64,000 nt of DNA from Cyanobacteriota bacterium (GCA_046052125.1 JBJOMY010000001.1:512001-576000), one strand, 5' to 3'; counted from the first letter of the stretch, positions 28,018 to 64,000 are shown. Made by a program: numbers and translations. The notes: generated by a model not told the origin, from the letters alone.

Positions 28018-28094
<77 letters not shown>

Positions 28095-44563: not shown

Positions 44564-44698
44564 CGCTTAGCTTCGTATATTTCGGGAATACTAGCAACAC
44601 CGAAAACAGCGCATTGGGCCATCGATTGTCAACAAATACCAAGGCTAGGCGCTAGCCGTGGGCTGTGGCGCTAGAATTGTGATAAGATTGCAGTAGAC

Positions 44699-45460
44699 AT
44701 GAAACTCGTTCGTCTCCTTTTGGGATCCTTCCTTGCTGCGGGAACCCAGCTTCACTCCCCTTCTTGGGCATCAGACGCTGCAGATGTGAAACAGATTTTG
44801 TCAAATATTCCCGTCTTTGTTCCTGTGACTCCAGATGGGAAAATCAAGCAGCTCAAACGAGAGGTTAATAAGAAAGGCGTCGATGTCGTGTTTGCTGCCA
44901 TGTCGCCTACCGCAGCATCACTACTCGTTGATCAAGTTATCCGTCCTGCTGAAGGAAAGGGCGCAAACGACATCACATTGACTGTGATGCCAATTACGCA
45001 GTTTAGGGAGTCTTTTGCTGCCATCAAGGCTGAGGCTATTGGTCCAGTCGAAATGGCCTACGTTCCAGATCCGATGCAGGAAGGCCCGGCGGTCAGCCTG
45101 ATGACTTCACAGGGTGTGAAAAGAGATGTCGCGGTGAATATCGCGCGCTCTCAACCCATCTTCTTCTGCCCGGAGCCACTCCTCACCGTGACGCAGAAGG
45201 TTGCCAATCAAGACCGCACATTTTCACCTTGCGGACAAGATTATGTGCAGATGTCTCTTCTAGTGCTTGGCTCTAATATCAAAGGGAGCAGGCCGGGCCT
45301 GCAAGCTGTCCCGCTTGCTGCACTTGAGGAATCCCTTTTATCTCAACCGGCTGAAAAGATCAAGAGCGTCCTTTTGCTCCCCTCTGCGGCGACCGAACAA
45401 GCCCTTCAGAACAACAGCAAGGGCAACGGTGGCGACGGCCGAGGCTCGACCAAAAAATAA
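44699..45460 (+). CDS. Tic22-like periplasmic protein
   Basis: Signal peptide; LSNIPVFVPVTPDG; YVPD...AVSLMTSQG...PIFF; LQAVPL..L...L. Confidence 0.62.
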   Translation: MKLVRLLLGSFLAAGTQLHSPSWASDAADVKQILSNIPVFVPVTPDGKIKQLKREVNKKGVDVVFAAMSPTAASLLVDQVIRPAEGKGANDITLTVMPITQFRESFAAIKAEAIGPVEMAYVPDPMQEGPAVSLMTSQGVKRDVAVNIARSQPIFFCPEPLLTVTQKVANQDRTFSPCGQDYVQMSLLVLGSNIKGSRPGLQAVPLAALEESLLSQPAEKIKSVLLLPSAATEQALQNNSKGNGGDGRGSTKK

Positions 45461-45531
45461 TAATTCCTCAATGGCATCTCTTGCCAAAAACGGAGTGCCT
45501 GCTTCAATGGACCTAGCTTGCATCCGCCTCA

Positions 45532-45936
45532 ATGTTCCTTAATCGCGAAAAGCGGCTGGCTAGACGCCAGTTCAGGGATTTTGTCCGTTGGCTCGCGGAT
45601 CAAACACAAGAACGGCGGGCCTTTCTGATGGCGCTTTGCTATCGCGAGAGCCAAGTGAGGGATCTCGTAAGTTTTTTTGGCGCCCTCAGCAAGGAGCAGC
45701 AATATGATTCGTTGATTCGGCTTGGCCTCACGCATGAACAAGCTGAGCAAGCCATTGTCAACGGTGAACTTGTTGCAGCAGACCGGCGTCGCTCGGAACA
45801 ACAGTCTTCCCCCACGGAAGATGCATCACAGCTTGATATGTTAAATCACAGCTCTCTGGATGTACCTCCTGAGCTACTGGAACCGCCTAGGCCGTTAAAA
45901 AAGAGAATTGAAATGAGATCTTCTGTAAATCTCTAA
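45532..45936 (+). CDS. hypothetical protein (134 aa)
   Basis: ATG ORF filling the gap between the Tic22-like gene and a convergent gene. Confidence 0.55.
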   Translation: MFLNREKRLARRQFRDFVRWLADQTQERRAFLMALCYRESQVRDLVSFFGALSKEQQYDSLIRLGLTHEQAEQAIVNGELVAADRRRSEQQSSPTEDASQLDMLNHSSLDVPPELLEPPRPLKKRIEMRSSVNL

Positions 45937-45961
45937 AGGCTGATGGATTCAGCTTGTGAGA

Positions 45962-46258
45962 TTAGGAATGATAGGGCTTAACCCCTTTCTCAATGATTTG
46001 AGCTTTAATGGTCTCGTAATAAGTCTGCTGGGCAGCCTGAATTTGGCGCAGACGATATTGAAGCTCCTCGGCCTCATGGTTGAAGCGTAGCAAGTCCTTC
46101 AAAAGAGCTTTAACTTCATCAGGAAGACTTTCGGTGTCGTAGCTAACATCATCAACAGTGATGAGGTTTGCTGGGGCATCAAGTTGAGGTTGGTCAAAAG
46201 ATTGATCAAGCGAAGACTCGGTACGTTTTTTTCGTACCGGTTTAGTTTGCTCTGGCAT
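45962..46258 (-). CDS. small coiled-coil protein, DUF6447-like
   Basis: ITVDDVSYDTESLPDEVKALL followed by a heptad helix; paralog of 48111-48398; starts 13 nt after tpsB. Confidence 0.65.
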   Translation of the reverse strand: MPEQTKPVRKKRTESSLDQSFDQPQLDAPANLITVDDVSYDTESLPDEVKALLKDLLRFNHEAEELQYRLRQIQAAQQTYYETIKAQIIEKGVKPYHS

Positions 46259-46271
46259 TTGGCGAAAAGAG

Positions 46272-48077
46272 TTAGAAACTTAAGGTAACTCTAAAGAATC
46301 CGTTACCGTTGGAGAAGCCTGTAGAAGCGGCTTGTGTATCACTACTGAATGGTACACCATAGCCAGCGTCGGCGCTTAACCATCCACTGCTAGATGAGAA
46401 GAGCCTGAGGCCCAATCCGGCAGTTGCAACCGATTGAACCCCTGAGAAGCCTGGTTCAGTCTGCTTCAGAGAAACAGACCCTCCATCGACGAAGGCGTAG
46501 GGTTGCAAATAGATATTCTTGATTATATTTGGAAGCATGTACGACAATTCAAGGCTACCTATCACGCCCTGATCGCCAAGAATGGTCACCGATCGATAGC
46601 CCTTACCAAAACTATTGCCACCAAAACCAATCTGCTCCGCAGAGGGTGTTGGCCCCTTAGCAGCTTGGGCCATACCTCGTAGCGACACCTGGAGCATGTT
46701 GTCAGATGTGAGGCTTCGTTGGTATGCCAGGTTAAACTGAGCTGTTGTGAAGTCTAATTGACCGTAGTATGGCTCTGAAGATAAATCTGCAATTTGGATA
46801 TTGTTTACACTTCCCAGCATAGACAGACCTTGGCTGAGCTGAATACTCCCTTGGGATGACCAGTTCTTAGCAACTTTATTAGCTTCTAGCCTAATACGGA
46901 ATGTTCTAAGATTAGTTTCCGTGGAACTCACCTTGACATCGGGAGCCAGGGTGGCATTGGTGCTGTTGAGAAGATCAAGTTGAGCAGTCGTATAAATACT
47001 GGATAAACGATTGAGTTTTAAGGGATATCGGAATGCCCAAGACCCGAAATAACTTTCACCGCCTGTGGTCAGGTCTAAGCCTTGAACCCCTGTGCTGAGT
47101 GGGAAGGAATTGGTCTCGGTGAAGGAAAAACTACCCGAGGTGGTTAGGCCAGATGTACCAAGGGGCAGTGAAGCCGAATAAAACAGAGAAGAAAGACCAT
47201 TATTGACTGGCCATGTATATGAGCCAGACGCTGACATGCCAACAGGTATAGCAAGGACTGGGGTGTCGTAGATGCTTGCTGTGCCACGCACATTTCCAAG
47301 CTGCGACGGCACCCAGTTATCCACACCAAGGGAGGCCTGAAGCTTGTCAGGAATGATCTGCAGAGTGAGAATGCTAGATCCTGTTTCTGATCCAGGACTC
47401 AATACAGAGCCAAGTTTGATACCACCGTTGGCTTCTGCGAGCAGTAGCTGGCGCTCAAGGCGTTGAATCGTTAATGGTCCCCTTGACTGGCCCACGACGG
47501 GTTGCAGGAAAGAAAGGAGCCAGCGCTCCAATGGCCCACCAGGCTGAGTGGCTGTGGTTGATTCAGTGTCGGAGCTACTTTGTGGCTTTTGTTTCTGTTG
47601 AAGCTGGATCGTTTCGATATATCCCTCAAGGATCTGTATCTTGAGCTCACCAGTGGAAATATTCTGCTTGGGAAGCAGGGCAACACTGATGAAATACCCC
47701 TTGGAGCGATAGAGTGCGGTAACCTCCTGGGTGAACTGTTCAATCTCCGCGAACGAAAGCTGCTTATCAATAACTTCAGATGCTAACTTTTGAAGCTCAT
47801 CATTGGACACCTTGGTGTTCCCAAGGAAGATCACCTTCTTGATCAGTACACGCACACCATCATCGGCGCCGGATGTTGGCGGAGCAGATTCAACCTCGGG
47901 AGCAGGCCGTGTTGGAGACAGCTGCGGCTGATTTGGAATAGGCGGTAGATATTCACGCTGCAACACACCAGGATTGAGAACCCCAGGATTGATCTGCGCC
48001 AGGGCAGCGTTGACTGAAAGTGCCAGCACTGAAGCAACAGTGCTGGTGTACAAGAGCTTGTTGGTCACAACCAGCAA
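46272..48077 (-). CDS. TpsB/ShlB/FhaC family outer-membrane transporter
   Basis: POTRA (GNTKVS...YRSKGY...LPKQNI..G.L.I.ILEGYI), LSPGSETGSS.L, FGG..GKGY loop motif, GLGLR, terminal Phe. Confidence 0.92.
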   Translation of the reverse strand: MLVVTNKLLYTSTVASVLALSVNAALAQINPGVLNPGVLQREYLPPIPNQPQLSPTRPAPEVESAPPTSGADDGVRVLIKKVIFLGNTKVSNDELQKLASEVIDKQLSFAEIEQFTQEVTALYRSKGYFISVALLPKQNISTGELKIQILEGYIETIQLQQKQKPQSSSDTESTTATQPGGPLERWLLSFLQPVVGQSRGPLTIQRLERQLLLAEANGGIKLGSVLSPGSETGSSILTLQIIPDKLQASLGVDNWVPSQLGNVRGTASIYDTPVLAIPVGMSASGSYTWPVNNGLSSLFYSASLPLGTSGLTTSGSFSFTETNSFPLSTGVQGLDLTTGGESYFGSWAFRYPLKLNRLSSIYTTAQLDLLNSTNATLAPDVKVSSTETNLRTFRIRLEANKVAKNWSSQGSIQLSQGLSMLGSVNNIQIADLSSEPYYGQLDFTTAQFNLAYQRSLTSDNMLQVSLRGMAQAAKGPTPSAEQIGFGGNSFGKGYRSVTILGDQGVIGSLELSYMLPNIIKNIYLQPYAFVDGGSVSLKQTEPGFSGVQSVATAGLGLRLFSSSSGWLSADAGYGVPFSSDTQAASTGFSNGNGFFRVTLSF

Positions 48078-48110
48078 AAATGCGAATCGTTAAATCAGAG
48101 AAGAGAAACT

Positions 48111-48398
48111 TTAATCCTGATACTCGTTCGATTCCTCAATCCGATATGGCTCGATATTATTGTCTTTAATTTCTTTTTCGATGGTGGCGATGTAAGCCTG
48201 CTGGCTGAGTTGGGCTTGCCTGAGCTTGAACTGCAGCTCATTCACCTCACGCGCAATTCGCATGAGATCGTCGACAAGAATTTTGATAGAGTCGGGTGCC
48301 TCCAACATGTTGTAGGAGCGACCGTCAAGCGTCAGAAGGGGCGGTGTCTGATCTTGGGACTGCTCTTGGGACTGCTCTTGGCTTAGCTCTTGATCCAT
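48111..48398 (-). CDS. small coiled-coil protein, DUF6447-like
   Basis: LTLDGRSYNMLEAPDSIKILV...ELQFKLRQAQ..QQAY; N-terminal SQEQ repeat. Confidence 0.65.
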   Translation of the reverse strand: MDQELSQEQSQEQSQDQTPPLLTLDGRSYNMLEAPDSIKILVDDLMRIAREVNELQFKLRQAQLSQQAYIATIEKEIKDNNIEPYRIEESNEYQD

Positions 48399-48657
48399 GG
48401 CAGAAAAATCTTTTGCAAATAATACCAGTTGACTTTTCATGACGCAACGATTTGAATACCGTCTTGATTCCCTCGCAATCGTCAGTAGCCCTGCCAATAA
48501 CTCAGTCGCAGACCTTAATAATCTTGATGGGGATGAGGCGGCGCTCAGGGCTCGTTGACGACGGATGAAGCGTTGTGCCTGTCCTGGTTATTGCATAATG
48601 CGATGAGTCTTAGGAATATCTGTTATCGGCATGAGTCCAGGTCTGGATTCATGCTGT

Positions 48658-51600
48658 TTACCGGTTCTCGTTGATTTTATCGGCTGTGGCGATACGACCG
48701 AGGCGTGACTTGATTAAACTTGAAATCTTTTCTCTGCCTACAAAGTTATCGAGAACAGCTCTGAGGAAACCCGGAATAACATCTTTCTCTGGCCTCTCGA
48801 CAGATTCGCCAATGGCATCCAGGTCCTGGAGTGGAGTAATGGCTTGCGTTTGCTGATCCCTCGGGGTGCCATCACCTGTGCTTCTAATGTCACCATCAGG
48901 CTCGACGAGAATCACCTCGCTGCTTTTGATAGTGGTTTCAGGTCGAGTCGAAGTTGTGCTGAGTGCTGCATCCGATTCCGATGAATCGCTGGGTTCGGGT
49001 TGTTGGGGCAATCCGGTTTCGTCATTTGATGCAGCCTCTAGAGATTGTGTATTCGTCTGTGATTCCCTGCTCTCGTTTGGTCCCTGCAGCTGGATGCTGC
49101 CATCTGCCGCTATTTCTGCATTGACGTTGAGAGACGGGTAAGCGATCTCTGCAGCGATGCCAATTTGTGATGGATCATACGTGTACTCGCTAATGTTCGG
49201 AACGATCACAAGGGCAATCGTTGACAAGCCCTGCCCAGCAACATCGTTGTCTATGGGTGTGAATGCGGGATTGGTTAGATTGGTGAAAGCGATCGACCCT
49301 TCACCGGTTGAGATCTCAATGGAAATTGGGGTGTTGTAAGTGCTCTGAACGCCGCTGGATAACGTGACGAAGGACTCGATGGACATATCCTGATCGGCTA
49401 TCAAGACCGGCTTACCGCCGGTGTCTGAGACAGGGAGAGGCAGGATAGACGCAGTGGCGCTTGCTTGATCCGTGATCAGGTAATTGAGATAATCAGTACC
49501 TCCATAAGTGGATGTGAGCGTCACTGATTTTGCTGTACCTACGTCCGAATCGCTGAAGGTCCCGGTTGCATCTAACGTGACGTCATCACCAGCGATCATG
49601 CCGCCCGAAACGAGCACTGCATTGGTCACCCCAGCTGTGCTGACGGTGGCATCAGTGGTGCCGTCATAGGTTTTGTCGGCAGCGGTGATGCCGCTGATGG
49701 TGAGCGCTTTCGCCGTGATGGTGGCCGTTAATCCAGTGGTCGGAGCGAGGCTGTAATTGGAGCCAAGACCACCATTGTTGCCATCGGCCAACACATAGGT
49801 GGCTGTTGCTGTTCTTGCACCAACATTTTTGCTATCAAACACACCAGTAGTGCTTGCGAGGTTCACTGTTTGATTGCCCTCAAATCCAGTGAGCGTCCCT
49901 GGCGTGATTGTCGCCGTTGTGGTGCCGTTGTATTCCCTGCCTGCTGCGGTGCTGTTCGTGATCGTCAGCGCCTTCGGTGTGATCGTGGCGTCGTTCAGGC
50001 TGAGGCTTGTTGTATTGAGCTGATAGTCGCTCAGTGCTCCACTGCCACCAGTGATGCTGGCCAGCGCGATACTGGTGAGATTCAGCTGGCTGGCACCCAC
50101 CACGTTGGCATTGTTGTAGGCCGCGCCATAGCTGAGAGTTGCTGAATCACCGCTCACTAAGCCGGAAAGCTGCCAATTAGGCACAAAGCCGGTGCCAGCT
50201 GTTGTGCCGTCGTAGATCTTGCTTGCGCTGGTGTTGTTCAGGGAGGCTGTAACGGGAGCCGCTGTGATCGTCACGGCTGCATTGGTGGCATTCAGCGTGG
50301 GCAACACATAGTTCGTAGCTAAACCGCCGCCGCTGCCATCGGCCAGGGTGATGGCGTTGATGAACTTGCCGGTGGTGGCCACATGAGAATTCGACGCCGT
50401 AGCTCCGCTGTAAGTCAGGGTTTCACCGCTCACGCCGGTTGCAATGGTGACGGCTCCGGCGAGATCCGTGCTGCCGTTGTAGACCTTAGTGGCGGAGAGT
50501 GTGACGGTTTTGGGTGCGATGGTGGCCGCTAACCCCGTGGATTGAGCGAGGCTGTAATTGGAGGCCAATCCACCATTGCTGCCATCGGTCAACACATAGG
50601 TGGCTGTTGCTGTTCTTGCTCCGGCATCTTTGCTATCAAACACACCAGTGGCGGTCGCCAGCGCGACTGTTTCGCTGCCGACAAATCCAGTGATCGTGCC
50701 CGGGGTGATCACCGCCGTTGTGGTGCCGTCGTATTCCCTGCCTGCTGCGGCGCTGTTTGTAATGGTCAGCGCCTTGGGTGTGATCGAGGCTGACAATGCA
50801 TTGATGGACGGATTCGTAGCTAGCTGATAATTGCTGGCACTTGTTCCAGTTAAGGTGAAACCGCTGGCCGTCACCGTTTGCGGTTGAACGCTGCCGCCTG
50901 CGCCGCGCGACACATTCTCACTTGCAAATTGGGCCGAGTAGATTGCAATCGCGAGCTGATCATTTGAGATCCGGCCTGTGAACGTTGCTCCTGATGTATC
51001 GAGTGTGGCCGTATTTGTCCGGTTGTAAACCTTGTCTTGAGCAACCAGCCCACCGATAGCGCTGATGGTGGCGGGTGTGATCGAAGCGCTAAGGCTGAGG
51101 CTGGATGTATTGAGCTGATAGTCGCTCAGTGATCCGCTGCCACCACTGATGCTAGCCAGAGCAAGGCTGCTGAGATTCAGCTGACTGGCACCCACAACAT
51201 TGGCATTGTTATAGGCCGCGCTGTAGTTGATAGTCGCTGAATCACCGGAGGCAAACCCGAGGAGCTGCCAGCTGGGCGTAAAACCAGTGGCTGCTGTAGT
51301 GCCGTCGTAGATTTTGGTCGCGCTGGCGTTCGTGAGTGCGGCGGTAATGGGTGCCGCTGTGATCGTCACGGCGGCATTGGTTGCATTCAGCGTTGGCAAC
51401 ACATAGTTCGTAGCCAACTCACCGCCACTGCCATTAGCCAGGGTGATGGCGCTGATGAACTTGCCGGCAGTGGCTACATGAGAATCCGACGCTGTTGCAC
51501 CGCTGTAGCTAAGGGTTTCACCATTCACCCCGGTTGTGATCGTCACGTCTCCGGTGAGATCCGTGCTGCCGTCGTAGACCTTGCTGGCGGAGAGTGTGAC

Positions 51601-54600: not shown

Positions 54601-57600
54601 CGCTGTGATCGTCACGGCGGCATTGGTGGAATTCAGCGTTGGCAACACATAGTTCGCAGCTAATCCGCCACCGCTGCCATCGGCCAGGGTGATGGCGCTG
54701 ATGAACTTGCCGGCAGTGGCTACATGAGAATCCGACGCTGTTGCACCGCTGTAGCTAAGGGTTTCACCATTCACCCCGGTTGTGATCGTCACGTCTCCGG
54801 TGAGATCCGTGCTGCCGTCGTAGACCTTGCTGGCGGAGAGTGTGACGGTTCTGGCTGTAATGCTGGCCGTTGTTGTGGGCTGACTGGTGATGGTGTAGTT
54901 GCCAAGATCAGCGCCGCCATAGCTGGATGTGAGGTTGACGTTTAGGGGCGTGGAGGCAACATCTTTACTGGCGAAGGAACCAGTGGCACTCACCGTGATG
55001 TCATCACCGGCAATCATGCCGCCAGAAACGAGCACAGCATTGGTGACACCAGCTGTGCTGACTGCGGCGTTGGTGTTGCCGTCATAGGTTTTGTCGGCAG
55101 CGGTGATCCCGCTGATCGTCAGCGGCTTTGGTGTGATGTTGGCTGACAATGCATTGACGGACAGATTCTGAGCCAGCTGGTAATTGCTGGCACTTGCTCC
55201 AGTTAAGGTGAAACCGCTGGCTGTAACCGTTTGCGGTTGAACGCTGCCGCCTGTGCCGCGCGACACATTCTCGCTTGCAAATTGGGCGGCATAGCTGTTG
55301 ATCGCGAGCTGATCATTTGAGATCCGGCCTGTGAACGTTGCTCCTGATGTATCGAGTGTGGCCGTATTTGTCTGGTTGTAAACCTTGTTTTGAGCAACCA
55401 GTCCACCGATGGCGCTGATGGTTGCGGGTGTGATCGAAGCGCTAAGGCTGAGGTTGGATGTATTGAGCTGATAGTCGCTCAGTGTTCCGCTGCCGCCAGT
55501 GATGGTGGCGAGGGCAAGGCTGGTGAGATTCAGCTGGTTAGCACCCACCACGTTGGCATTGTTGTAGGCCGCGCTGTAGCTGATGGTTGCTGAATCACCG
55601 GCTGCAAATCCAGAAAGCTGCCAACTGGGCGTAAAACCGCTGGCTGATGTTGTGCCGTCGTAGATCTTGCTTGCGCTGGTGTTGTTCAGGGAGGCTGTAA
55701 TGGGTGCCGCTGTGATCGTCACGGCGGCATTGGTGGCATCCAGCGCCGGCAACACATAGTTCGTAGCTAAACCGCCGCCGCTGCCATTGGCCAGGCTGAT
55801 GGCGCTGATGAACTTGCCGGTGGTGGCCACATGAGAATCCGACGCCGTAGCTCCGCTGTAAGTCAGGGTTTCACCGCTCACGCCGGTTGCAATGCTCACG
55901 GCTCCAGTGAGATCCGTGCTGCCGTTGTAGACCTTGCTGGCGGAGAGACTGACGGTTTTAGCTGTAATAGTGGCCGCCAACCCCGTGGATGGAGCGAGGC
56001 TGTAATTGGATGCCAATCCACCATTGGTGCCGTTGGCTAACACGTAGGTGGCTGTAGCTGTTCTAGCTCCGGCATCCTTGCTATCAAACACACCAGTGGC
56101 GCTTGCCAGCGCGACTGTTTCGTTGCCGACAAAGCCGGATAGGGTTCCTGGCGTGATTGTTGCCGTTGTGGTGCCGTCGTAGGCCCTGCCTGCGGCCGTG
56201 GTGCCGCTGATTGAAAGTGCCTTGGGTGTGATTGAGGCGTTTAGGTTCAGGCTGGATGTACTGAGCTGATAGTCGCTACTGAACGCGCCACTAGTAGCAC
56301 TGATGCTAGCCAGGGCAAGGTTGGTGAGATTTAGTTGGCTAGCACCCAGCACGTTGGCATTGTTGTAGGCAGCGCTATAGCTGAGAGTTGCGGTATCACC
56401 GTTTAGCAATCCAGAGAGCTGCCAACTGGGCACAAAGTCGGTGGCTGATGTTGAGCCGTCGTAGATCTTGCTTACGCTGGTGTTATTCAGGGAGGCTGTA
56501 ACGGGTGCCGCTGTGATCGTCACGGGAGCGTTGGTTGCATTCAGCGTTGGCAACACATAGTTCGCAGCTAAGCCACCGCCGCCGCCGTTGGCCAGGGTGA
56601 TGGCGCTGATGGTTTTGCCAGCGGTGGTCACATGAGAATCCGACGCCGTTGCACCGCTGTAGGTGAGCGTTTCAGTAGCCACACCGGTTGTAATCGTCAC
56701 GTCTCCGGTGAGATCCGTGTTGCCGTCGTACACCTTGCTGGCGGAGAGTGTGACCGTTCTGGCTGTGATGCTGGCGGTTGTCGTTGACTGCCCTGTAATG
56801 CTGTAGTTGGCTGCGTCATCGCCACCAGTGCTGGAGGTGAGGTTGACGGTTTGACCGGACGCTACGTTTTTGCTGGTGAATGAGCCAGTGGCATTCACTG
56901 TGACCACATCGCCTGTCACGATCCCGTTAGCAGCAACCCCAGCTGTGCTGACAGTTGCTGTGGTGTTGCCGTCATAAACCTTATCGGCAGCGGTGATCCC
57001 GCTGATCGTCAGCGCCTTGGGCGTGATGGCGAACCGATTGTTCGGATCATTCACAAGCACTTTTCCAAGGTCGTTCGTGAGGCCGCTCACATAGACAAGC
57101 GGTGAGGTGCCAACAACCGCGTTATTGGATGTTGACTTGGCTCCGTTGAACTGCCAGGTAGCTGTTCCAGTGATGGTTCCAAGTGCTGCGCCTGATACAA
57201 GCTGGTAGTTACTATTCCGGTAGGTCAGTGTGTTCTCACTGATCACGGGAAGATTGCCGTAGACCGTCGACGTTAATGGTGCAACCACAAAGACAACATC
57301 TTGGCGGTAAATTGCAGTGAGGCCAGTTCCAACCGGTGCGGTGTAGTTCTTGGTGACTTCGTCGCTGTTGAAGCGAAGGTTGACGAGCGATGTTGTCGAG
57401 CCGACAAGAGCATCCAGGTAGCTACTGCCTTGATTCGCGTAACGACCGGAATACAGCAAACCAGTACCTCCGCTGCCAACGTTTGCGGATCCGCCTGCTG
57501 CAACAATGATGTCTCCACTCACTGCAACGCCTGCACTCGCGGTGACACCTGCATTCAAGAGCAATGCAGGTGCGGTCAGAGAGTTGGAAGTGCTGGTGGT

Positions 57601-60600
57601 CTTCACCGGGGCAGACAACGTGAGATCACCTGTATCGGTGGTCACAGTGATGCGTTCAGTTGATGTGATCCCACTCAGTGACCCAACGGTGCCAACGGTC
57701 AGAGCGCCCTCATTTTTGAAGGTAATCTGACGACCTGTTGAAATAGCAATCTTGTCTACATCATTCAAACCAGAGGGCATGACTGGTCCATCTGAGATGA
57801 CCATTAACTCACTCGCAGTAATTTTGCCAGAACCAGACAGGCCCGTTGTCGATTGAGTTGGGTTGTTCGTCGTTATAGAGATGCGTCCTGTTGCCGTTAT
57901 TGGGCTGTTAAGGGTCAAACTTGCCGTATTGAGCGTGAGGTTGCTGCCGGTAAGGCCGCTGCCAGCAATTGTTAAAGCACCTGTGGTGTTAATCGTTGTT
58001 GATCCGGTGCCGCCAAGCGTGTTGCCGATGGTGAGAGCGCTATCGCCACGATTCCAAACCAGATTCGCATTGTTCGTGATGCTGCCCGTTACGCCTGCAC
58101 TGCTGCTTTCCCCAACGCCGAGCTGCAGAGTTCCCGCATTGATCGTCGTATTGGTGATGGTATTGGCTTCTAGCAGGGTTGTGGTTCCTGTGCCATTCTG
58201 CGTCAACGACGAGGCAGTGATTGCTTTTTGAAAGGTCATATCACCAGAGCCAATGATATTGACGGTGCTCATGGGAGGAGTGCCATTCGTTGTAATTGCT
58301 TTACTTATTGTCGCTGCAACATTGCTTGGGTTATTGAACGCGACTGAGCCTGTTCCATTCGCGAAATATATTTGGCTCTCAAATGTCGGGTCCTTGTCCA
58401 GGTTGATCTGCAGTCCACCACTGTAGATATTGGTAGCACCGGTGTAGCTGGGCTTCTCAAGAATTGTTGTTCCGCTGCCCCGCTGATTAACTACTCCAAT
58501 CCCGATGATCTCGTTGGTGATGGTGAGGTTGTTGCTGCTGTTCAGGTTGAGGTTGTTGAGGGCACTAGTCATGTTGACTATGCCTGTTCCGAGCGCATTC
58601 GCAGCGGTTATCTCTATGTTCCCAGTTTTAATAGTAGTGCCGCCGCTATATGTATTTGATCCAGTAAGAGTGACTTGGCCGCTAATATCGATAACGACGG
58701 ATCCAGTACCGCTGATGTTCTGATCAAAAGTAAGGGGGCCAGCGCGATTTATAGTCAATGTACCGTTGTTGATAACGGCTCCGCTGCCGATGGCTCCCCA
58801 GGTAAAAGAAGCGTTGGATCCTACTTGCAGTGTTCCGGCTTGGATCGTTGTTGTCCCGGTATTGGTATTGCTGCCGGTGAGTGTAAGTGTCCCAGCGCCT
58901 AGCTTTGTAATACTTCCATCACCCGTTAGAGTGGCTCCCCACGTAACAGTCCTCCCGTCCGGGATGTCGATCTTGTAGGCGTTTGATCCTGTTGACGTGT
59001 TGAACCTAGATGAATTGTCAGTTGAGTTTGCATAAAGCAGCGTACCGCCACGGAAGCTGATCGTTCCGCTTGAGCTAAGGGCATTGGAACTATATACGCC
59101 AATTATTCCTGAATTGAGAACTGTGCCCCCTGTATACGTGTTGTTGCCACTTAGCGTCTGCGTGCCTGTGCCGCTCATGGTCACGGCCCCGCTGCCTGAA
59201 ATGACCCCGGAGTAATGCGTGCTAGACGTGAGCGCCCCACCCAGGTTGGTGCCGCCCACATTGAAGGTGAGCCCTCCTGCGCTGATGGAGATCGCACCCG
59301 ATCCGGTTACTGCACCCGTTGTGGTTTTCAGTTCTAGGCCGCCCGCGCCCGAGCGGGTGATGTTATTGGTGAGGATGATGTTCCGGTAGGCATCTAGGGT
59401 GAGTTTGTTGGCGGTACTGCTGCTGAAATTCGTTGCAACGGTGATATCACCGGCTTGTGTTCCGGCTGAGCCGGCTCCACCGGTTCTCACCGTGACGTTC
59501 GAGCTATTCAGTGCCGTCGTGAGGGTGTAATCATCGACCACTGCCGAATCAGCAGTGGCTGTGAACGATCCATCCACTCCTGCCTGCGTTGCTGACTTGA
59601 TGGTGATGTTGTAGGGGTCCAGCAACCACAGGCCCGTTTCACCCGCTGCTGCTGTTGTATCCACGCGGATGTCATCCACCTTCAGGTCGTAGCCGGAGGT
59701 TTCGATGCGGCCGCCGTTACCGCCCGCCGTCCCGCCTCTGGCAAGCAGCGTGCCCGACACCGTTGTGACGCTCTGCGGGTTCTGGATATCACTCCAGGCC
59801 ACCACGGTGCCGCCATCGCCGCGTTGCAGGGCCGATGCATCGAGGAGTGCCCCTTGGGCAATGGTGGTGGTGATGGCCTGACGTACGGCTGGGTTGCTGT
59901 TTTGCCAGCTGCCGCCGATCTGGATCAAACCACCTGCTGTTGCACCTGTGGCATCCACCACAGCCGTTGAGCCCAGATTGATGGCATTACCCACAACCGT
60001 GATGGCACCGCCCTTGAGGCCATCGTTGGCACGGATGACCCCTTGAATGTCAACGCTGCTGCCAGCCAGCTCAACGCTTTGCGCTGCGCTGAGCGTGGCG
60101 GCTTTGCCAACTTCAATGTTGCCGCCGCTGATCAGGCTGAGGTTTTGGCCTGATTGCAGCACTTCATGCACAACAATCGATCCGGTGTGTGCTGCATCGC
60201 CAATGGTGAGTTGGCTAACGGGGGCCGCCTTGATGGCTTCAAGTGTGGTGCCGCTGAGGGTGAGCGCTGGTGAGGAAGCAGCCGCGCTGGGCTGGGGAGC
60301 GCCCACTTGAATGGCCAGGTTGGGTGCGCTTGTGGTGATTTGCAGCTGGCTGGATTGGCCCAGATCAAGGGCCACTTGGATGGGTTTGGCAATCTCGATC
60401 TCCGCTGCCGAGAGCCGGATCGATGGAGCGGCGAGGAAGAGGTTGCCTTGGAAATTGAGCTTTTGGGCAACGCTGATATCACCCCTGATCTCAATGCGCG
60501 TGGGGGCTAACACCTCAAGGCTGTTCAGCCCTGTAAAGCCACTGAGGGTGATGTTGCCTGTGTTCGCGAAGTTGCAGGATGTGGAGCAGGCCTCGATCAC

Positions 60601-62658
60601 GAGGTTCTGGCCAGCAAAGTTGAGAGCACTGGCCTGATCGATCGTGAGATCAAGCCCGTCGAGATACAACCGCTTGATGGGTGTGATTGATGCCGTTGGC
60701 GCAGCGGGGGTGCTGATCTGCGCTGCGCTGGCCTGGGTCGCAACCTGCAGCTCTGTGGCCTGCTCCACCTGGGCGATGGTCTCGGCTTCTTTGTCGTCGT
60801 CTGCGGCTGTGGTGGATGGCGCTGCAGCCTCTGGCTCTGGAGCGGGGGCCGCCTGGCTGAGCGGCTCTGTAGGGCTTGGTGAGCTGGTGGTTTGAGCCGT
60901 GTTGGCCTGGTTGGCTGCCACCACCAAGCTTCCAGAGCTGGGCTGATCGGTGGAGATGGCCTCTGCGCCTTGGATCTCGCCTTTGGCTTCCACCGTGACG
61001 GTGGAGCCTTCGTTCACCGCTTGTTGGAGCGATTCAGCGCTGATCGTGCTGGTTGCTTCTGTTGGCGCTGCTGTTGCGCTCTCCTCTGTTGTTGAGGCGA
61101 TGTCTGTGCTGCTTGCTTCGGGGGTGGGTTCTTCAGGAGGGGTGTCTTCCGTTGCGGCTTCTTCTGTGGAGGTGATCGTTACCTCCTCGGGATCCAGCAA
61201 CCACTGGCCCGCTTGCCCTTTTGGTGCCGCGGTGCTGACGCGCCCTGTGACGTTGAGCAGTTTGGCGGAACTGGTTTCAACAAAACCACCATTGCCGCCA
61301 TTGGCGCCACCGCGTGCAGTGATGGTGCCGTGCATGTCGGTGCGTTCGTCACTCCAGACGATCACGCGACCGCCATCACCGTTGTCGATGGCATCGGCAC
61401 TGATCGAGCTGGCTTGATCGATCAGGACGGACTTGGCATTGAGAAGTTGAGGATTTACTCCTCGTTGATCACCACCGATTCTGATCCGGCCACCACCACG
61501 GGTGCCGCTCACGCTGAGAACCGCACCGACCAGTTCGATCTGATCACCGAGAACGTCAATCGTTCCGTCGTAGAAGCGGTTGACCTCGTCGTTGGCTTGG
61601 CCCTGGGCAAAGAGACTGCTGGGGGCCAGGCTCACGCCTTGTAGATGAACAGAAGCGTCAGCAGCGCTGACGGCGTGGTCGCGGAAGGCCGTTTTCGACG
61701 ACTCTGGCGCCTCAATGAGATGTTGCGCTTCCAGGGTGCCCTGGAGCTTCACCTGTTTGCCGGCAACCGTGATGGCTCCGGCGGGTGCACTGATCGCTTC
61801 TCCATCCAGCAACTCCTCCACGGAGTTGGCCTGAACAAGACCGCCGACGTTGACGACGGAGGTGAGTGCTCCACCGAGGTGTGACGCACCGATCCAGATG
61901 GCTCCGCCTGGAGCCTGGATCGTGCCTTGCTGATTGATCAGCGAATTGAGAACTTCATCACTCACCGCCAGAGTGATCAAGCCATCGCCATTCACATCCA
62001 GCGTGGCGCTCTGGCCGCTGGCCAGCACCACCGTGCCCATGCGGGCACTGATCAGGCCCTCGTTGCTGATGTTGGCGCCCACCAGGGCTGCCAGGCCACC
62101 TTCTGCAACGCTGATGCTGCCTTGGTTGAGGATTTGGCCTTCTGCGGGCCCGCTGGTGGGTTTCCACAGGCGCAGAGGGCCGCCCGAGAGGAACTGCTCA
62201 GGGTTGGCATCCAGCGTGGAGGCCATGAAGCTGGCCGTGTTCACGCTGCCGGAGGGTCCGATCAACAGGCCCTGCGGGTTCAGCAGGATCACCCCGCCGT
62301 TGGCCTTCAGCAGGCCATCAATTTTTGACGGCCCTAGGCCGCCAACCACCCGGCCCAGAAACAGCGACTTGGCGTCCGGCTGCTGGATGAGCACCCGCTC
62401 GTTGGCGCGGATGTTGAAGCTGTTGAAATCGACCGCCCCACGCCGCTGCTGCTGGCGGATCTGGAGGGTGGCCGGATCAGGGTTCGAGAACTCGATGCCA
62501 CCACCGCGCACGCGTGCGCCATCGGGCAGGGCGAAGCACGGCGCAGCCGAAAACGCTGCAATGGCCGCCATCGCACCCGTTTGCACCACAAGCGCAGCCG
62601 CGTCGCGGCCAGTGGGTCGGGCCTTTCCGGCCAGATCGCTTGCAGTGCCAGATGCCAC
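48658..62658 (-). CDS. giant TpsA / filamentous haemagglutinin-family exoprotein (4666 aa) with YDG repeats
   Basis: Signal ending PCFA|LP, TPS domain (FNSFNI...NPQG), two WLLDP modules, GxGTLTLTGxNT beta-strand repeats, 28 YDG-type modules; GTG start uncertain. Confidence 0.93.
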   Translation of the reverse strand: MASGTASDLAGKARPTGRDAAALVVQTGAMAAIAAFSAAPCFALPDGARVRGGGIEFSNPDPATLQIRQQQRRGAVDFNSFNIRANERVLIQQPDAKSLFLGRVVGGLGPSKIDGLLKANGGVILLNPQGLLIGPSGSVNTASFMASTLDANPEQFLSGGPLRLWKPTSGPAEGQILNQGSISVAEGGLAALVGANISNEGLISARMGTVVLASGQSATLDVNGDGLITLAVSDEVLNSLINQQGTIQAPGGAIWIGASHLGGALTSVVNVGGLVQANSVEELLDGEAISAPAGAITVAGKQVKLQGTLEAQHLIEAPESSKTAFRDHAVSAADASVHLQGVSLAPSSLFAQGQANDEVNRFYDGTIDVLGDQIELVGAVLSVSGTRGGGRIRIGGDQRGVNPQLLNAKSVLIDQASSISADAIDNGDGGRVIVWSDERTDMHGTITARGGANGGNGGFVETSSAKLLNVTGRVSTAAPKGQAGQWLLDPEEVTITSTEEAATEDTPPEEPTPEASSTDIASTTEESATAAPTEATSTISAESLQQAVNEGSTVTVEAKGEIQGAEAISTDQPSSGSLVVAANQANTAQTTSSPSPTEPLSQAAPAPEPEAAAPSTTAADDDKEAETIAQVEQATELQVATQASAAQISTPAAPTASITPIKRLYLDGLDLTIDQASALNFAGQNLVIEACSTSCNFANTGNITLSGFTGLNSLEVLAPTRIEIRGDISVAQKLNFQGNLFLAAPSIRLSAAEIEIAKPIQVALDLGQSSQLQITTSAPNLAIQVGAPQPSAAASSPALTLSGTTLEAIKAAPVSQLTIGDAAHTGSIVVHEVLQSGQNLSLISGGNIEVGKAATLSAAQSVELAGSSVDIQGVIRANDGLKGGAITVVGNAINLGSTAVVDATGATAGGLIQIGGSWQNSNPAVRQAITTTIAQGALLDASALQRGDGGTVVAWSDIQNPQSVTTVSGTLLARGGTAGGNGGRIETSGYDLKVDDIRVDTTAAAGETGLWLLDPYNITIKSATQAGVDGSFTATADSAVVDDYTLTTALNSSNVTVRTGGAGSAGTQAGDITVATNFSSSTANKLTLDAYRNIILTNNITRSGAGGLELKTTTGAVTGSGAISISAGGLTFNVGGTNLGGALTSSTHYSGVISGSGAVTMSGTGTQTLSGNNTYTGGTVLNSGIIGVYSSNALSSSGTISFRGGTLLYANSTDNSSRFNTSTGSNAYKIDIPDGRTVTWGATLTGDGSITKLGAGTLTLTGSNTNTGTTTIQAGTLQVGSNASFTWGAIGSGAVINNGTLTINRAGPLTFDQNISGTGSVVIDISGQVTLTGSNTYSGGTTIKTGNIEITAANALGTGIVNMTSALNNLNLNSSNNLTITNEIIGIGVVNQRGSGTTILEKPSYTGATNIYSGGLQINLDKDPTFESQIYFANGTGSVAFNNPSNVAATISKAITTNGTPPMSTVNIIGSGDMTFQKAITASSLTQNGTGTTTLLEANTITNTTINAGTLQLGVGESSSAGVTGSITNNANLVWNRGDSALTIGNTLGGTGSTTINTTGALTIAGSGLTGSNLTLNTASLTLNSPITATGRISITTNNPTQSTTGLSGSGKITASELMVISDGPVMPSGLNDVDKIAISTGRQITFKNEGALTVGTVGSLSGITSTERITVTTDTGDLTLSAPVKTTSTSNSLTAPALLLNAGVTASAGVAVSGDIIVAAGGSANVGSGGTGLLYSGRYANQGSSYLDALVGSTTSLVNLRFNSDEVTKNYTAPVGTGLTAIYRQDVVFVVAPLTSTVYGNLPVISENTLTYRNSNYQLVSGAALGTITGTATWQFNGAKSTSNNAVVGTSPLVYVSGLTNDLGKVLVNDPNNRFAITPKALTISGITAADKVYDGNTTATVSTAGVAANGIVTGDVVTVNATGSFTSKNVASGQTVNLTSSTGGDDAANYSITGQSTTTASITARTVTLSASKVYDGNTDLTGDVTITTGVATETLTYSGATASDSHVTTAGKTISAITLANGGGGGLAANYVLPTLNATNAPVTITAAPVTASLNNTSVSKIYDGSTSATDFVPSWQLSGLLNGDTATLSYSAAYNNANVLGASQLNLTNLALASISATSGAFSSDYQLSTSSLNLNASITPKALSISGTTAAGRAYDGTTTATITPGTLSGFVGNETVALASATGVFDSKDAGARTATATYVLANGTNGGLASNYSLAPSTGLAATITAKTVSLSASKVYNGSTDLTGAVSIATGVSGETLTYSGATASDSHVATTGKFISAISLANGSGGGLATNYVLPALDATNAAVTITAAPITASLNNTSASKIYDGTTSASGFTPSWQLSGFAAGDSATISYSAAYNNANVVGANQLNLTSLALATITGGSGTLSDYQLNTSNLSLSASITPATISAIGGLVAQNKVYNQTNTATLDTSGATFTGRISNDQLAINSYAAQFASENVSRGTGGSVQPQTVTASGFTLTGASASNYQLAQNLSVNALSANITPKPLTISGITAADKTYDGNTNAAVSTAGVTNAVLVSGGMIAGDDITVSATGSFASKDVASTPLNVNLTSSYGGADLGNYTITSQPTTTASITARTVTLSASKVYDGSTDLTGDVTITTGVNGETLSYSGATASDSHVATAGKFISAITLADGSGGGLAANYVLPTLNSTNAAVTITAAPVTAALTNSSASKIYDGTTTATSFVPSWQFSGLLTGDTAALSYSAAYNNANVVGANQLNLTGLSLSSITGGNGALSDYQLTTSSLNLNASITPKALSISGTTAAGRAYDGTTTATITPGTLSDFVGNETVTLASATGVFDGRDAGARTATATYALADGNNGGLASNYSLAPTTGLTATIAPRTVTLSASKTYNGSTDLTGAVTITTGVSGETLTYSGATASNSHVATTGKFISAISLANGSGGGLATNYVLPALDATNAAVTITAAPITATLTNSSATKIYDGSTSATDFVPSWQISGLVSGDSATLSYTAAYNNANVVGASQLNVSNLSLASITGGSGALSDYQLNTTSLSLNNATITPKALTITNSTAAGREYDGTTTAVITPGTITGFEGNQTVTLASATGVFDSKNVGARTATATYVLANGTNGELASNYSLAPTTGLTATITAKALTISGITAANKTYDGTTDAIVSTAGVTNAVLVAGGMVNGDVVTVSATGSFASKDVASTPITVNLTSSYGGADLGNYTITSQPTTTASITARTVTLSASKTYNGSTDLTGAVTITTGVIGETLSYSGATASDSHVATAGKFISAITLANGSGGELATNYVLPTLNATNAAVTITAAPITATLTNSSATKIYDGTTAANGFTPSWQLLGFASGDSATLSYSAAYNNANVVGANQLNLSSLALASISGGSGSLSDYQLNTSSLSLSASITPATISAIGGLVAQDKVYNRTNTATLDTSGATFTGRISNDQLAINSYAAQFASENVSRGAGDSVQPQTVTASGFSLTGASASNYQLAQNLSINALSASITPKALTITNSAAAGREYNGTTTAVITPGTITGFEGNQTVTLASATGVFDSKNIGARTATATYVLANGTNGELASNYSLAPTTGLTATITAKALTISGITAADKTYDGTANATVSTAGVTNAVLVAGGMVNGDVVTVSATGSFASKNVASTPLNVNLTSSYGGADVGNYAISSQPTTTASITARTVTLSASKVYDGSTDLTGDVTITTGVNGETLSYSGATASDSHVATAGKFISAITLANGSGGELATNYVLPTLNATNAAVTITAAPITAALTNASATKIYDGTTAATGFTPSWQLLGFASGDSATINYSAAYNNANVVGASQLNLSSLALASISGGSGSLSDYQLNTSSLSLSASITPATISAIGGLVAQDKVYNRTNTATLDTSGATFTGRISNDQLAIAIYSAQFASENVSRGAGGSVQPQTVTASGFTLTGTSASNYQLATNPSINALSASITPKALTITNSAAAGREYDGTTTAVITPGTITGFVGSETVALATATGVFDSKDAGARTATATYVLTDGSNGGLASNYSLAQSTGLAATIAPKTVTLSATKVYNGSTDLAGAVTIATGVSGETLTYSGATASNSHVATTGKFINAITLADGSGGGLATNYVLPTLNATNAAVTITAAPVTASLNNTSASKIYDGTTAGTGFVPNWQLSGLVSGDSATLSYGAAYNNANVVGASQLNLTSIALASITGGSGALSDYQLNTTSLSLNDATITPKALTITNSTAAGREYNGTTTATITPGTLTGFEGNQTVNLASTTGVFDSKNVGARTATATYVLADGNNGGLGSNYSLAPTTGLTATITAKALTISGITAADKTYDGTTDATVSTAGVTNAVLVSGGMIAGDDVTLDATGTFSDSDVGTAKSVTLTSTYGGTDYLNYLITDQASATASILPLPVSDTGGKPVLIADQDMSIESFVTLSSGVQSTYNTPISIEISTGEGSIAFTNLTNPAFTPIDNDVAGQGLSTIALVIVPNISEYTYDPSQIGIAAEIAYPSLNVNAEIAADGSIQLQGPNESRESQTNTQSLEAASNDETGLPQQPEPSDSSESDAALSTTSTRPETTIKSSEVILVEPDGDIRSTGDGTPRDQQTQAITPLQDLDAIGESVERPEKDVIPGFLRAVLDNFVGREKISSLIKSRLGRIATADKINENR
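49441..57027 (-). repeat. array of 28 YDG-type modules in five sequence classes
   Basis: Near-identical DNA blocks, e.g. offsets of 1371 (50871/52242), 3246 (51478/54724) and 3543 (49870/53413) nt. Confidence 0.92.
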
Positions 62659-62694
62659 TGAATTAGCCAGAATGCGATTTCAGCATACCTGGTA

Positions 62695-62710
62695 TGTATC
62701 ATCAGTTACA
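62695..62710. promoter_or_regulatory. NtcA box upstream of the giant tpsA
   Basis: TGTA-TCATCAGT-TACA (minus strand TGTAACTGATGATACA), 36 nt before the GTG start. Confidence 0.62.
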
Positions 62711-62897
62711 ACAGCTGCGCACCATTTTTGGGCCGGTTTTCTCGAGCCCACCCTGTGACTGCACGAAACGTGATCCAATGACAATTCGCGCCATAGAGGC
62801 AAGAATTTACGTATGTACTGATTAAGTCTGCAGTTTCATTAGGATTGCTCTTGCGGACCCTTCTACGCCGTGCTTGCAAGCTCTTCCAAGCAATCGA

Positions 62898-63713
62898 TTA
62901 TGGCGCCTGTGATCCTGCAAGCACGCCCTGAACGAAGTGCTTATTGCGCTTTGCAGAGTCCATTCCTGTGAGTAGCGTTGGGTGAGCAAGAACTTCAATG
63001 CTGCTCACGGCTGCATCGCTTTCCTTCTTCAGGGCATTGATCATTTTCCATAATGGAACGGCCACAACTGTGATTGATTGCTGATCAGCGCGTTCTTTCA
63101 GGATTGCCAACAGGGTAGACACGCTGAAACTGCACGGAATAAACTTTTTGCCGCTGGAGCGACGATGCACTGTCGTGCCTTTGTCCTCAGCGTAAATGGC
63201 AGGTACTGGGCAGAAGACTGGAACGTCGCTTCCGATTTCTTCAGCGGCTTCCTTGCTGCTTAGGCCCTGCTGTTGAAGCAAGCGTATCGCAGCGTCTCGT
63301 TCGGCGCTGTCTGGGATGATGCTTGCTCCAAGTGATGGAAGCTGCGCGCGATAGCTCTTCCATCTCTGCAAGAAGTAGTTCAGAGTCGTGGGCGTGAAGC
63401 GGAGTTTTCCTTCAGCCGATGGATCCGTCGATGCACGAATCGCTTCCCTCACCTCGTCCAAGCCTGTGGTAGAGACCGCTGCATAGATCTTCGGTGCAGA
63501 CGATTTGTTGGCTGGGGTAATGATGACTGGGGCACCTGTCTGATCGATCGCCGTGAGCACGAAAATTCTGTCGAGCTTCTCGTCCATGACCTCCGGTGTG
63601 GCTGCTATAGACCTCAGTGGTGCATGCGTGGCTCCCAAAACCAAGAGCAAAACTGAGCCAGCGAATTGCCTCAGCGATCTGAGTGAGGGAGCCGTTGATT
63701 GTGATCGTTGCAT
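62898..63713 (-). CDS. Tic22-like periplasmic protein (second paralog)
   Basis: Signal peptide; KLDRIFVLTAIDQTGAPVI; IIPD...AIRLLQQQG...VPVF; ITVVAVPL..MI..L. Confidence 0.68.
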   Translation of the reverse strand: MQRSQSTAPSLRSLRQFAGSVLLLVLGATHAPLRSIAATPEVMDEKLDRIFVLTAIDQTGAPVIITPANKSSAPKIYAAVSTTGLDEVREAIRASTDPSAEGKLRFTPTTLNYFLQRWKSYRAQLPSLGASIIPDSAERDAAIRLLQQQGLSSKEAAEEIGSDVPVFCPVPAIYAEDKGTTVHRRSSGKKFIPCSFSVSTLLAILKERADQQSITVVAVPLWKMINALKKESDAAVSSIEVLAHPTLLTGMDSAKRNKHFVQGVLAGSQAP

Positions 63714-63718
63714 GGCCG

Positions 63719-64000
63719 TTAATCCCCCTTGGTGCCCTTATCGGCTCTGGCGATGCGCCCGAGCTGTGTCTTGAAGAAGCGTGAAACCTGCATTCGGGTT
63801 GTCAAGCTATTGCGCATCGCCCTGAGGAAGCTGGGAACCACATTCTGATCAGGGCGTTCATTGGAGTTGCGAATGGCATCCTGTTCCTGCAGCGGGGTTA
63901 CATCCCGACCCGGCTCATTGTTGGGTGTGCCATCACCTGTGCTCTTGATCTCACCGTCTGGCTCAACAAGAATCACTTGGCTGCTGTCGATGGCGGGTTC
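63719..64000 (-). CDS. 3' end of a second TpsA-like protein (continues beyond the window)
   Basis: Frame open to the window edge; VILVEPDGEIKSTGDGTP...TPLQ..DAI..S.ERP...V.P.FLRA...LGRIA.ADK aligns with the C-terminus of the 4666-aa protein. Confidence 0.8.
   Translation of the reverse strand, partial: EPAIDSSQVILVEPDGEIKSTGDGTPNNEPGRDVTPLQEQDAIRNSNERPDQNVVPSFLRAMRNSLTTRMQVSRFFKTQLGRIARADKGTKGD

Follow-up and report, generated by a model that had tools for sequence, protein, structure and literature searches.

Diverged Tic22 paralogues in a picocyanobacterial two-partner secretion island: candidate periplasmic helpers for giant type V passengers

Tic22-fold genes in a two-partner secretion island

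We analyzed a stretch of 64,000 nucleotides (the window) from the freshwater picocyanobacterium Cyanobacteriota bacterium GCA_046052125.1 (JBJOMY010000001.1:512001-576000, which corresponds to G000:C1:512001-576000, where G000 is the source genome of 2.64 Mb in 10 contigs and C1, C3 and C7 are contigs of it). The right-hand part of the window carries a type Vb (two-partner secretion, TPS) island in which the genes for two giant secreted proteins (TpsA) and their outer membrane transporter (TpsB) are interspersed with genes for two Tic22-fold proteins (T22a and T22b) and two small helical proteins (cc1 and cc2). T22a and T22b have the fold and homology of Tic22, as judged from profiles and models, and belong to a distinct and diverged clade of Tic22 paralogues that we designate T22L. 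We propose, at roughly even chances, that T22L proteins are Tic22-derived, client-dedicated periplasmic helpers (holdases) for giant type V passengers. The island is a worthwhile experimental lead that draws on few independent lineages. Comparisons cover 201 genomes of the family of the source organism (G labels) and a phylum sample of 401 genomes. The open reading frames (ORFs) and features of the island are as follows.

44102..44563, minus strand: DUF4177-like/Sp36-like ORF of 153 amino acids adjoining T22a, with subthreshold family scores
44699..45460, plus strand: T22a, 253 amino acids, Tic22 fold, T22L clade (by profile and model)
45532..45936, plus strand: orf134, conserved ORF of 134 amino acids between T22a and cc1 (by homologous clusters)
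45962..46258, minus strand: cc1, 98 amino acids, diverged DUF6447 paralogue without a signal peptide
46272..48077, minus strand: TpsB, 601 amino acids, Omp85-family transporter (POTRA_2 and ShlB)
48111..48497, minus strand: cc2, 128 amino acids from the listed start (the actual one may be further inside), diverged DUF6447 paralogue
48658..62658, minus strand: TpsA-2 (tpsA2), 4,666 amino acids, with TPS domain, YDG and PATR repeats and C-terminal tail
48661..48939, minus strand: conserved C-terminal tail of TpsA-2, motif TPL...ERP..V.P.FLR
62898..63713, minus strand: T22b, 271 amino acids, Tic22 fold, T22L clade; starts 5 bases after the TpsA-1 stop
63719..64000, minus strand: C-terminal tail of TpsA-1 (tpsA1); the gene continues past the window to G000:C1:604578

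The minus-strand genes are separated by gaps of 5 bases (tpsA1 to T22b), 33 bases (cc2 to tpsB) and 13 bases (tpsB to cc1), and tpsB lies 581 bases downstream of tpsA2 on the same strand, with cc2 in between. This spacing suggests a single operon in the order tpsA1 - T22b - tpsA2 - cc2 - tpsB - cc1, toward which T22a and orf134 run convergently on the plus strand. An earlier note on this DNA had described the same minus-strand order, with T22a and another plus-strand ORF facing it, and had read the gene upstream of T22b as ending in the TpsA tail. The ORFs were found exactly where the note had placed them, and the last 88 residues of the upstream gene product are 54.5% identical to the tail of TpsA-2. 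The upstream gene indeed encodes a second TpsA (TpsA-1) of 9,619 amino acids, still open at position 64000 and running on for 28.9 kb.

TpsB matches the Pfam families POTRA_2 (74.6 bits against a cut-off of 24, E = 5.6e-21) and ShlB (74.5 bits against a cut-off of 22.7, E = 1.3e-20), and it is the single ShlB match in the source genome. TpsA-2 has a TPS domain at residues 66-281 (PF05860, 86.1 bits, cut-off 33.5, E = 4.9e-24; TIGR01901, 57.8 bits, cut-off 29.1, E = 7.4e-16) and carries 25 YDG and four PATR repeat stretches. The N-terminal 491 residues of TpsA-1 and TpsA-2 are 88.6% identical. With a single ShlB match in the genome and near-identical TPS domains, both giant proteins presumably share the one TpsB. 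The island thus has the defining components of a type Vb system: a TpsA with an N-terminal TPS domain and, encoded alongside, a TpsB with POTRA domain and ShlB-type barrel.

T22a and T22b escaped direct detection. Neither matched the Pfam Tic22 family (PF04278) at E ≤ 1 or reached its gathering score of 23 bits, the Pfam and NCBIfam scans of both were empty, and single-sequence phmmer searches against the Protein Data Bank (PDB) gave only noise (E ≥ 0.6). Because direct searches missed it, the link to Tic22 needed profiles and folds. A profile of T22a and 20 relatives drawn from 1.84 billion representative proteins (A1) matched Anabaena Tic22 (4ev1_A, E = 3.1e-13) nearly over its full length (profile 29-245, chain 2-224), as well as the Tic22 chains 8xks_I, 8xqw_Q and 4e6z_A, and four of the 21 members of the A1 alignment match Pfam Tic22 themselves. 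The profile of the T22b family (A2) had 4ev1_A as its sole match (E = 1e-4). Searched against the source genome, T22b found a C7 paralogue (E = 1.4e-14), T22a (E = 7.4e-6) and, on contig C3, the canonical Tic22 (E = 5.6e-5). Pfam Tic22 recognizes the C3 gene and, barely (23.9 bits), the C7 gene.

AlphaFold models of T22a and T22b (predicted local distance difference test scores, pLDDT, of 89.2 and 73.4) each returned four significant PDB matches (E ≤ 0.001), all of them Tic22. The match to 4ev1 had E = 1.7e-12 for T22a (template modelling (TM) scores 0.66/0.73) and E = 2.0e-12 for T22b, and the first non-Tic22 matches followed at E = 1.6e-2 and 6.3e-2. The models and the family profiles together bear out the Tic22-like nature of both ORFs that the earlier note had claimed. 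The two proteins are 21% identical to each other. T22a has a hydrophobic N-terminus ending in SWA/SD and T22b a similarly hydrophobic N-terminal segment. Signal peptides, present or absent, were judged by eye rather than with a predictor, and on this reading both proteins are putatively Sec-exported and periplasmic. Tic22 is established as a shuttle of the periplasm or the intermembrane space; it is described as a periplasmic shuttle, and an Anabaena tic22 mutant as having outer membrane defects (PMC9705863).

The two cc proteins are 42% identical (E = 2e-18) and score below the gathering threshold (27 bits) of the Pfam family DUF6447 (PF20045), with 18.8 bits for cc1, 19.6 bits for cc2 and 23.5 bits for a homolog in genome G156. 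Their proposed kinship to DUF6447 nevertheless holds at the profile level: hhalign paired the cc profile with the true DUF6447 of the source genome at a probability of 94.5% (E = 7.4e-8, 74 columns). The Atlas feature score to a 'DUF6447 family protein' cluster was 0.95, and 22% of the members of that cluster carry the family. The true DUF6447 belongs to the core genes of the family, with a presence in 184 of the 201 genomes and in 130 of the 131 of high quality; the island thus holds additional, diverged versions of two core genes (Tic22 and DUF6447). The copy in the source genome (140 bits, G000:C1:473060-473272; L140:1405-1722, plus strand) lies about 39 kb before the window, with an ABC-transporter gene on one side and a cysteine-synthase-like gene on the other.

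When applied to a large protein collection, the cc profile retrieved 115 clusters, 39 of them with PF20045 (manual count). Strong cc loci (at least 139 bits) number only four, in two of the 201 family genomes, and are always beside or near T22L. The source genome has three copies of each, and every cc gene stands beside or near a T22L gene. Weaker matches to the cc profile (at most 32 bits) in 95 genomes were rejected as cc genes; in the genomes checked, G000 and G156, these matches fall on the core DUF6447 gene. A hydrophobic N-terminal segment is absent from all 17 aligned cc proteins (by eye), which makes them most likely cytoplasmic and unlikely to meet a periplasmic chaperone directly. 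DUF6447 is unmentioned in the full-text literature that we searched. Atlas also listed DUF6447-bearing viral clusters at a score of 0.89, which we take as a lead only, and a cc gene sits at the very end of a 2.7-kb contig (L177).

The T22L clade and its genomic surroundings

Scores of the A1 profile in the family genomes are bimodal, with T22L at 155 bits or more and canonical copies at 25-50 bits. T22L occurs in seven of the 201 genomes, with three loci in G000 and one each in G049, G070, G127, G134, G139 and G156. In the phylum sample, scores of at least 155 bits were found only in G000 and G156, and the other 44 genomes with a match had one copy each at 76-100 bits. A quick tree was built from 58 of 67 hmmsearch hits, after dropping eight envelopes shorter than 200 residues and one hit of 22.5 bits. 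The 11 T22L rows fall on one side of a branch with a Shimodaira-Hasegawa-like approximate likelihood ratio (SH-aLRT) support of 99, and inside the clade we distinguish a T22b-type group, a group of T22a, the C7 paralogue and the G156 protein (SH-aLRT 95) and a third group.

The clade also has a cysteine signature. All 11 T22L rows have both Cys157 and Cys178 (T22a numbering), against none of the 47 canonical rows, where the two positions hold Phe/Val and Phe/Leu, respectively. The pair is readily predicted to form a disulfide in the periplasm. A search of the genome contigs with A2 yielded 73 pattern matches, none of them a true relative, and a tblastn comparison with 50,697 phage records gave no match for T22a or cc2 that would point to a phage origin. 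Second Tic22-profile matches no more than about 1 kb from the first in three genomes of other cyanobacterial families (L120, L122 and L129; for example, L122_+2466 at 72.7 bits) suggest tandem Tic22 duplicates outside the picocyanobacteria as well.

Four of the nine T22L loci of the family sample lie beside proven type V genes, two lie beside truncated repeat proteins, one clearly lacks a giant gene and two have no usable context. Two of the four type V loci are in the window island (T22b between the two TpsA genes, T22a at a distance of 0.8 kb to tpsB); the remaining two are orthologues of one another. On contig C7 of the source genome, a T22a-type gene and a cc gene adjoin a glycine-rich ORF that exceeds 2,431 amino acids and reaches the contig end before its C-terminus. 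In G156 the T22L-cc pair flanks the orthologue of this giant, a glycine-rich protein of 10,682 amino acids whose last 712 residues contain the Autotransporter beta-domain (PF03797, E = 1.8e-39) of classical type Va proteins. The pair is inverted relative to the giant between C7 and G156 and the other flank differs, yet it still adjoins the giant. Two further genome records (L176 and L178) repeat the C7 and G156 arrangements with giants that are 92% and 88% identical; as close relatives, they were not counted as independent. A third record (L179) is the same locus as G156 and was left out of the counts. The G156 giant (L045:9776 via L080 to L081:17727, minus strand) is 29% glycine with repeats of the QSIGGGGG type and is followed by a 424-residue protein with a YadA anchor (type Vc; L081:16220-17494, minus strand).

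The T22L genes of G070 and G127 each lie behind the C-terminal end of a repeat-rich ORF whose beginning is lost at the contig start. The contig of G134 ends 124 bases from its T22L gene, and neither this locus nor that of G139 gives context, as the contigs end. A DUF4177-like/Sp36-like gene, represented in the window by the ORF at 44102..44563 (Sp36_fam, 28.1 bits against a cut-off of 50; DUF4177, 17.8 bits against 25), also stands beside T22L in G139 (L042:9315-9944, plus strand; 39% identity) and G127 (L041:3919-4281, minus strand; same N-terminal WEY..V motif by eye). Because it follows minE in G139, this gene may mark a shared insertion site rather than a partner.

The T22b type has a linkage of its own. 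Both TpsAs end in a tail of about 90 residues, and an alignment of four tails (A4) has 18 invariant columns. A tail-bearing gene ends just upstream of a T22b-type gene in three of three metagenome contigs and in the window, that is, in 4/4 loci, and one of the contigs comes from a relative at only 49% identity. Both metagenome contigs that are long enough also have a TpsA N-terminus downstream of the T22b-type gene. Among the 201 family genomes, tail and T22b type are both confined to G000. Co-folding of T22b (residues 38-271) with the tail scored 0.58 against 0.00 for the best of three controls, with runs agreeing in at least 64% of contacts and a partner pLDDT of at least 57. The mark used was reached by 116 of 157 solved complexes and two of 215 mismatched pairs, and passes at or below 0.60 comprise only 18 of the 157 solved complexes and both passing mismatches, so this score lends weak support. 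We consider it probable, from model and linkage, that the T22b type binds or grips the TpsA tail.

Proposed role and alternative explanations

Passengers of type V systems traverse the periplasm in an unfolded state and without ATP. We propose that the tpsA1-to-cc1 genes would be transcribed as one type Vb operon and that two giant YDG-repeat fibre proteins would be exported through one TpsB. T22a and T22b would keep these long, slowly exported passengers unfolded and protected in the periplasm, and T22L proteins would hand them to the Omp85-family porter in charge, which would be TpsB in this island and BamA in the case of the giant autotransporters. The T22b type is tied to tail-bearing TpsAs, whose tail it would probably bind, and the T22a type travels with a cc gene. 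As for the cc proteins, we would guess at a cytoplasmic step linked to this export route, for example precursor handling or expression control.

Several observations weigh against this proposal. Genes, folds, clade, cysteine pair and linkages are observations, whereas chaperone activity, clients, tail binding and any function of cc are our inference, and the tree is a quick version with long branches in which the inner order of the clade is provisional. TpsB is present in 60 of the 201 family genomes, 54 of them without T22L and six with it, which makes T22L dispensable for TPS generally, and tblastn found no T22L or cc gene in 29 other TpsB loci with 1.5-kb flanks. The upstream repeat ORFs of G070 and G127 match no Pfam family, and their putative type V link draws on composition and on one weak match of one of them to the TpsA-1 repeats (38% over 91 residues, E = 1.5e-4). 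The T22L gene of G049 has a dehydrogenase and peroxidases as neighbours and no giant gene close by, that of G139 lies between a DUF4177-like gene and an integrase, and that of G070 beside an ArdC-like gene. The cc proteins lack a hydrophobic N-terminus, so T22L and cc would not form a simple periplasmic complex. Finally, independent lineages are few: the four cc-T22L-autotransporter loci represent two, as do the loci with tail and T22b.

The earlier note had gone further and read the Tic22 paralogues as dedicated escorts of passengers to TpsB. The fold, the distinct clade and the repeated proximity to giant type V genes agree with dedicated paralogues, but not with specificity for TpsB, given the 54 genomes that have TpsB without T22L, the absence of T22L from all 29 other loci and the type Va autotransporter neighbours. 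Likewise, the neighbourhood combination of TpsB, Tic22-like and DUF6447-like genes was found in the window island and not in the 29 other TpsB loci, and the T22L-cc pair turns up beside type Va giants. A more specific form of the escort idea has the Tic22 paralogues docking to the TpsB POTRA domains and passing TpsA on, as in the Toc75-Tic22 pairing, which would make them parts of a distinct type Vb system. The Tic22 fold of both proteins, the POTRA_2 domain of TpsB and the positions of T22a near tpsB and of T22b between both tpsA genes are all consistent with docking, and Tic22 isoforms interact specifically with the POTRA domains of Toc75 (PMC4811774). However, close relatives of the T22a type flank type Va autotransporters in loci without tpsB, TpsB does without T22L in most sampled genomes that have it, and in G049, G070, G134, G139 and G156 the tpsB and T22L genes are separated by about 440 kb or sit on different contigs. 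We therefore regard docking as doubtful. The interpretation in the earlier note holds in part, and it is better widened from TpsB to giant type V passengers. A second possibility is that T22b clamps the TpsA tail, the last part to leave the periplasm, and works as a stopper or anchor that tethers the fibre through the TpsB pore or times its release, a logic comparable to the periplasmic retention of the FhaB prodomain. The adjacency of tail and T22b type in all four loci, the invariant tail columns despite differing repeat regions, the restriction of both elements to G000 and the co-folding score argue for it. Yet, according to the calibration, most co-folding passes at or below 0.60 are wrong when the guess was not already a likely one, the pair is known from only two diverged lineages, and T22a-type genes adjoin proteins without the tail. 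Such a stopper is, on balance, unlikely.

The linkage itself could also be incidental. In that case, T22L and cc would be spare copies of core genes that hitch-hike on variable islands and have no type V role, serving for example in general compensation of outer membrane stress. Giant surface-protein genes are typical island cargo in picocyanobacteria. The low G+C of the island, the transposase fragment on its left side and the G049 locus without a giant neighbour would fit hitch-hiking, and the integrase beside T22L in G139 and the ArdC-like gene in G070 suggest that travel on mobile DNA could explain part of the linkage. Against it, the T22L-cc pair stays by the giant despite the inversion and the different other flank, the adjacency of tail and T22b is kept down to 49% identity, and both the clade structure and the invariant cysteines point to a specialized function that has been maintained. 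These observations make a purely incidental linkage improbable. Far less plausible still is an immunity-like role, in which T22b would follow tpsA1 as cdiI follows cdiA and neutralize a toxic C-terminal domain. The position of T22b directly behind tpsA1 and its weakly predicted contact with the C-terminal tail recall such a pair. However, the tail is short, is kept between two TpsAs of one cell at 52% identity and matches no family, whereas the toxin tips of contact-dependent inhibition (CDI) systems are variable. Furthermore, CDI immunity proteins are usually cytoplasmic, whereas T22b has a Tic22 fold and an export signal.

The holdase proposal can be extended to the cc genes, though the extension is rather a long shot. 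Core Tic22 and core DUF6447, which would run a two-part route in all picocyanobacteria, could act as a periplasmic holdase and a cytoplasmic factor, respectively, on the same outer-membrane-bound clients; T22L and cc would then be a specialized copy of this route tuned for megadalton type V passengers, with T22b clamping the TpsA tail. If so, DUF6447 would gain a function and Tic22 a set of defined natural clients, and the Tic22-Omp85 partnership inherited by plastids could be studied on a dispensable bacterial substrate.

Cyanobacterial Tic22 is a general, near-essential periplasmic shuttle, and for this reason it is difficult to work out which clients it has and how it passes them to Omp85 proteins. 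A T22L paralogue that is dispensable and linked to its client would offer a clean genetic and biochemical handle on how the Tic22 fold recognizes its cargo and its Omp85 porter, a partnership put to use again in the protein import of plastids. Such a paralogue would also exemplify a periplasmic chaperone-fold gene encoded inside type V loci and bears on how passengers of 5,000 to 10,000 residues move across the periplasm without ATP. The co-duplication of DUF6447, for its part, would be a first functional lead for this picocyanobacterial core gene.

Comparison with known systems and flanking features

T22L shares its fold with canonical Tic22 (PF04278; 4ev1 from Anabaena, 4e6z from Plasmodium, 8xks_I and 8xqw_Q from Chlamydomonas) at target-normalized TM scores of 0.56-0.78, and the two also have in common a nearly full-length profile homology and an export signal (by eye). 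T22L differs from it in its separate clade, its cysteine pair and, for T22a and T22b, scores below Pfam detection. Whereas canonical Tic22 is a single-copy core gene, T22L comprises extra copies beside giant secreted-protein genes in seven of the 201 genomes. Similarly, cc shares with DUF6447 a helical C-terminal half preceded by the motif L-T-x-D/E-G-x-x-Y-x(4)-L-P, but has subthreshold scores and occurs in two of the 201 genomes instead of 184.

Like the TPS systems FhaB/FhaC, ShlA/ShlB and CdiA/CdiB, the island combines TPS domains with a POTRA and ShlB-barrel transporter in one operon. Unlike them, it has two giant TpsAs (9,619 and 4,666 amino acids) for one TpsB, a conserved tail on both and four extra conserved genes (T22a, T22b, cc1 and cc2), plus orf134. 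The view in the earlier note that TPS loci consist only of TpsA and TpsB is a simplification, since accessory genes such as the HMW1C/EtpC glycosyltransferases and CdiI occur in known loci. Of the periplasmic TPS helpers known to us, DegP and Par27, neither is Tic22-like or encoded within the locus. Classical type Va autotransporters, with which the G156 giant shares its C-terminal Autotransporter beta-domain, use general chaperones (SurA, Skp and DegP), whereas here a chaperone-fold gene adjoins the autotransporter gene. We found no description of Tic22 paralogues in type V loci in the literature, as far as titles and the beginnings of abstracts tell and with subscription journals outside the search. 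The related papers, by the same measure, are reviews and chloroplast-import or evolutionary studies, including work on the TAM (translocation and assembly module).

By its homologues, orf134 is a real conserved gene: it has eight homologous clusters at 46-93% identity, mostly of 132-134 amino acids, and no Pfam or NCBIfam family. The longest contigs recorded for T22b-like, orf134-like and cc-like clusters agree in length (8835, 15497 and 8825 bases), a hint of common contigs to which we give no weight. DNA near-identical to the island comes mostly from freshwater metagenome runs. In the metatranscriptome libraries of four studies, contigs that are 95-99% alike cover T22a, orf134, cc1 and tpsB, and some bridge T22a, orf134 and cc1; because DNA carry-over is possible, they attest presence rather than proven transcription, and the parts that they leave uncovered (for example, 48422-48622 in three of the four runs) carry no meaning. 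One RNA-library contig (run X16) lacks a base at window position 45881 and another at 45942. The first loss falls within the last 18 codons of orf134 and the second just past its stop, and the C-terminus of the protein may thus be weakly constrained in this relative.

A scan of positions 44000-49000 found promoter-like sites at chance level (four against 4.1 expected) and 11 terminator-like sites against 4.8 expected, none clearly at a gene end, and it was not used. The G+C content of the island is 0.49-0.60 from about 44 kb to the window end, compared with 0.60-0.68 over the initial 42 kb. The low-G+C region has at its left edge a transposase fragment (HTH_21 and truncated rve; 41826-42443, minus strand) and a YcgJ-domain gene (42910-43653, minus strand). 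The sole Rfam match in the window is a tRNA gene (28018-28091, plus strand). Beyond TpsA-1, the island continues with an MliC-type lysozyme inhibitor (L008:12263-12622, plus strand), a classical autotransporter of 1,032 amino acids (L008:15233-18331, minus strand; Autotransporter domain at E = 4.9e-40 and a PATR repeat) and a PliI-type lysozyme inhibitor (L008:18741-19436, minus strand).

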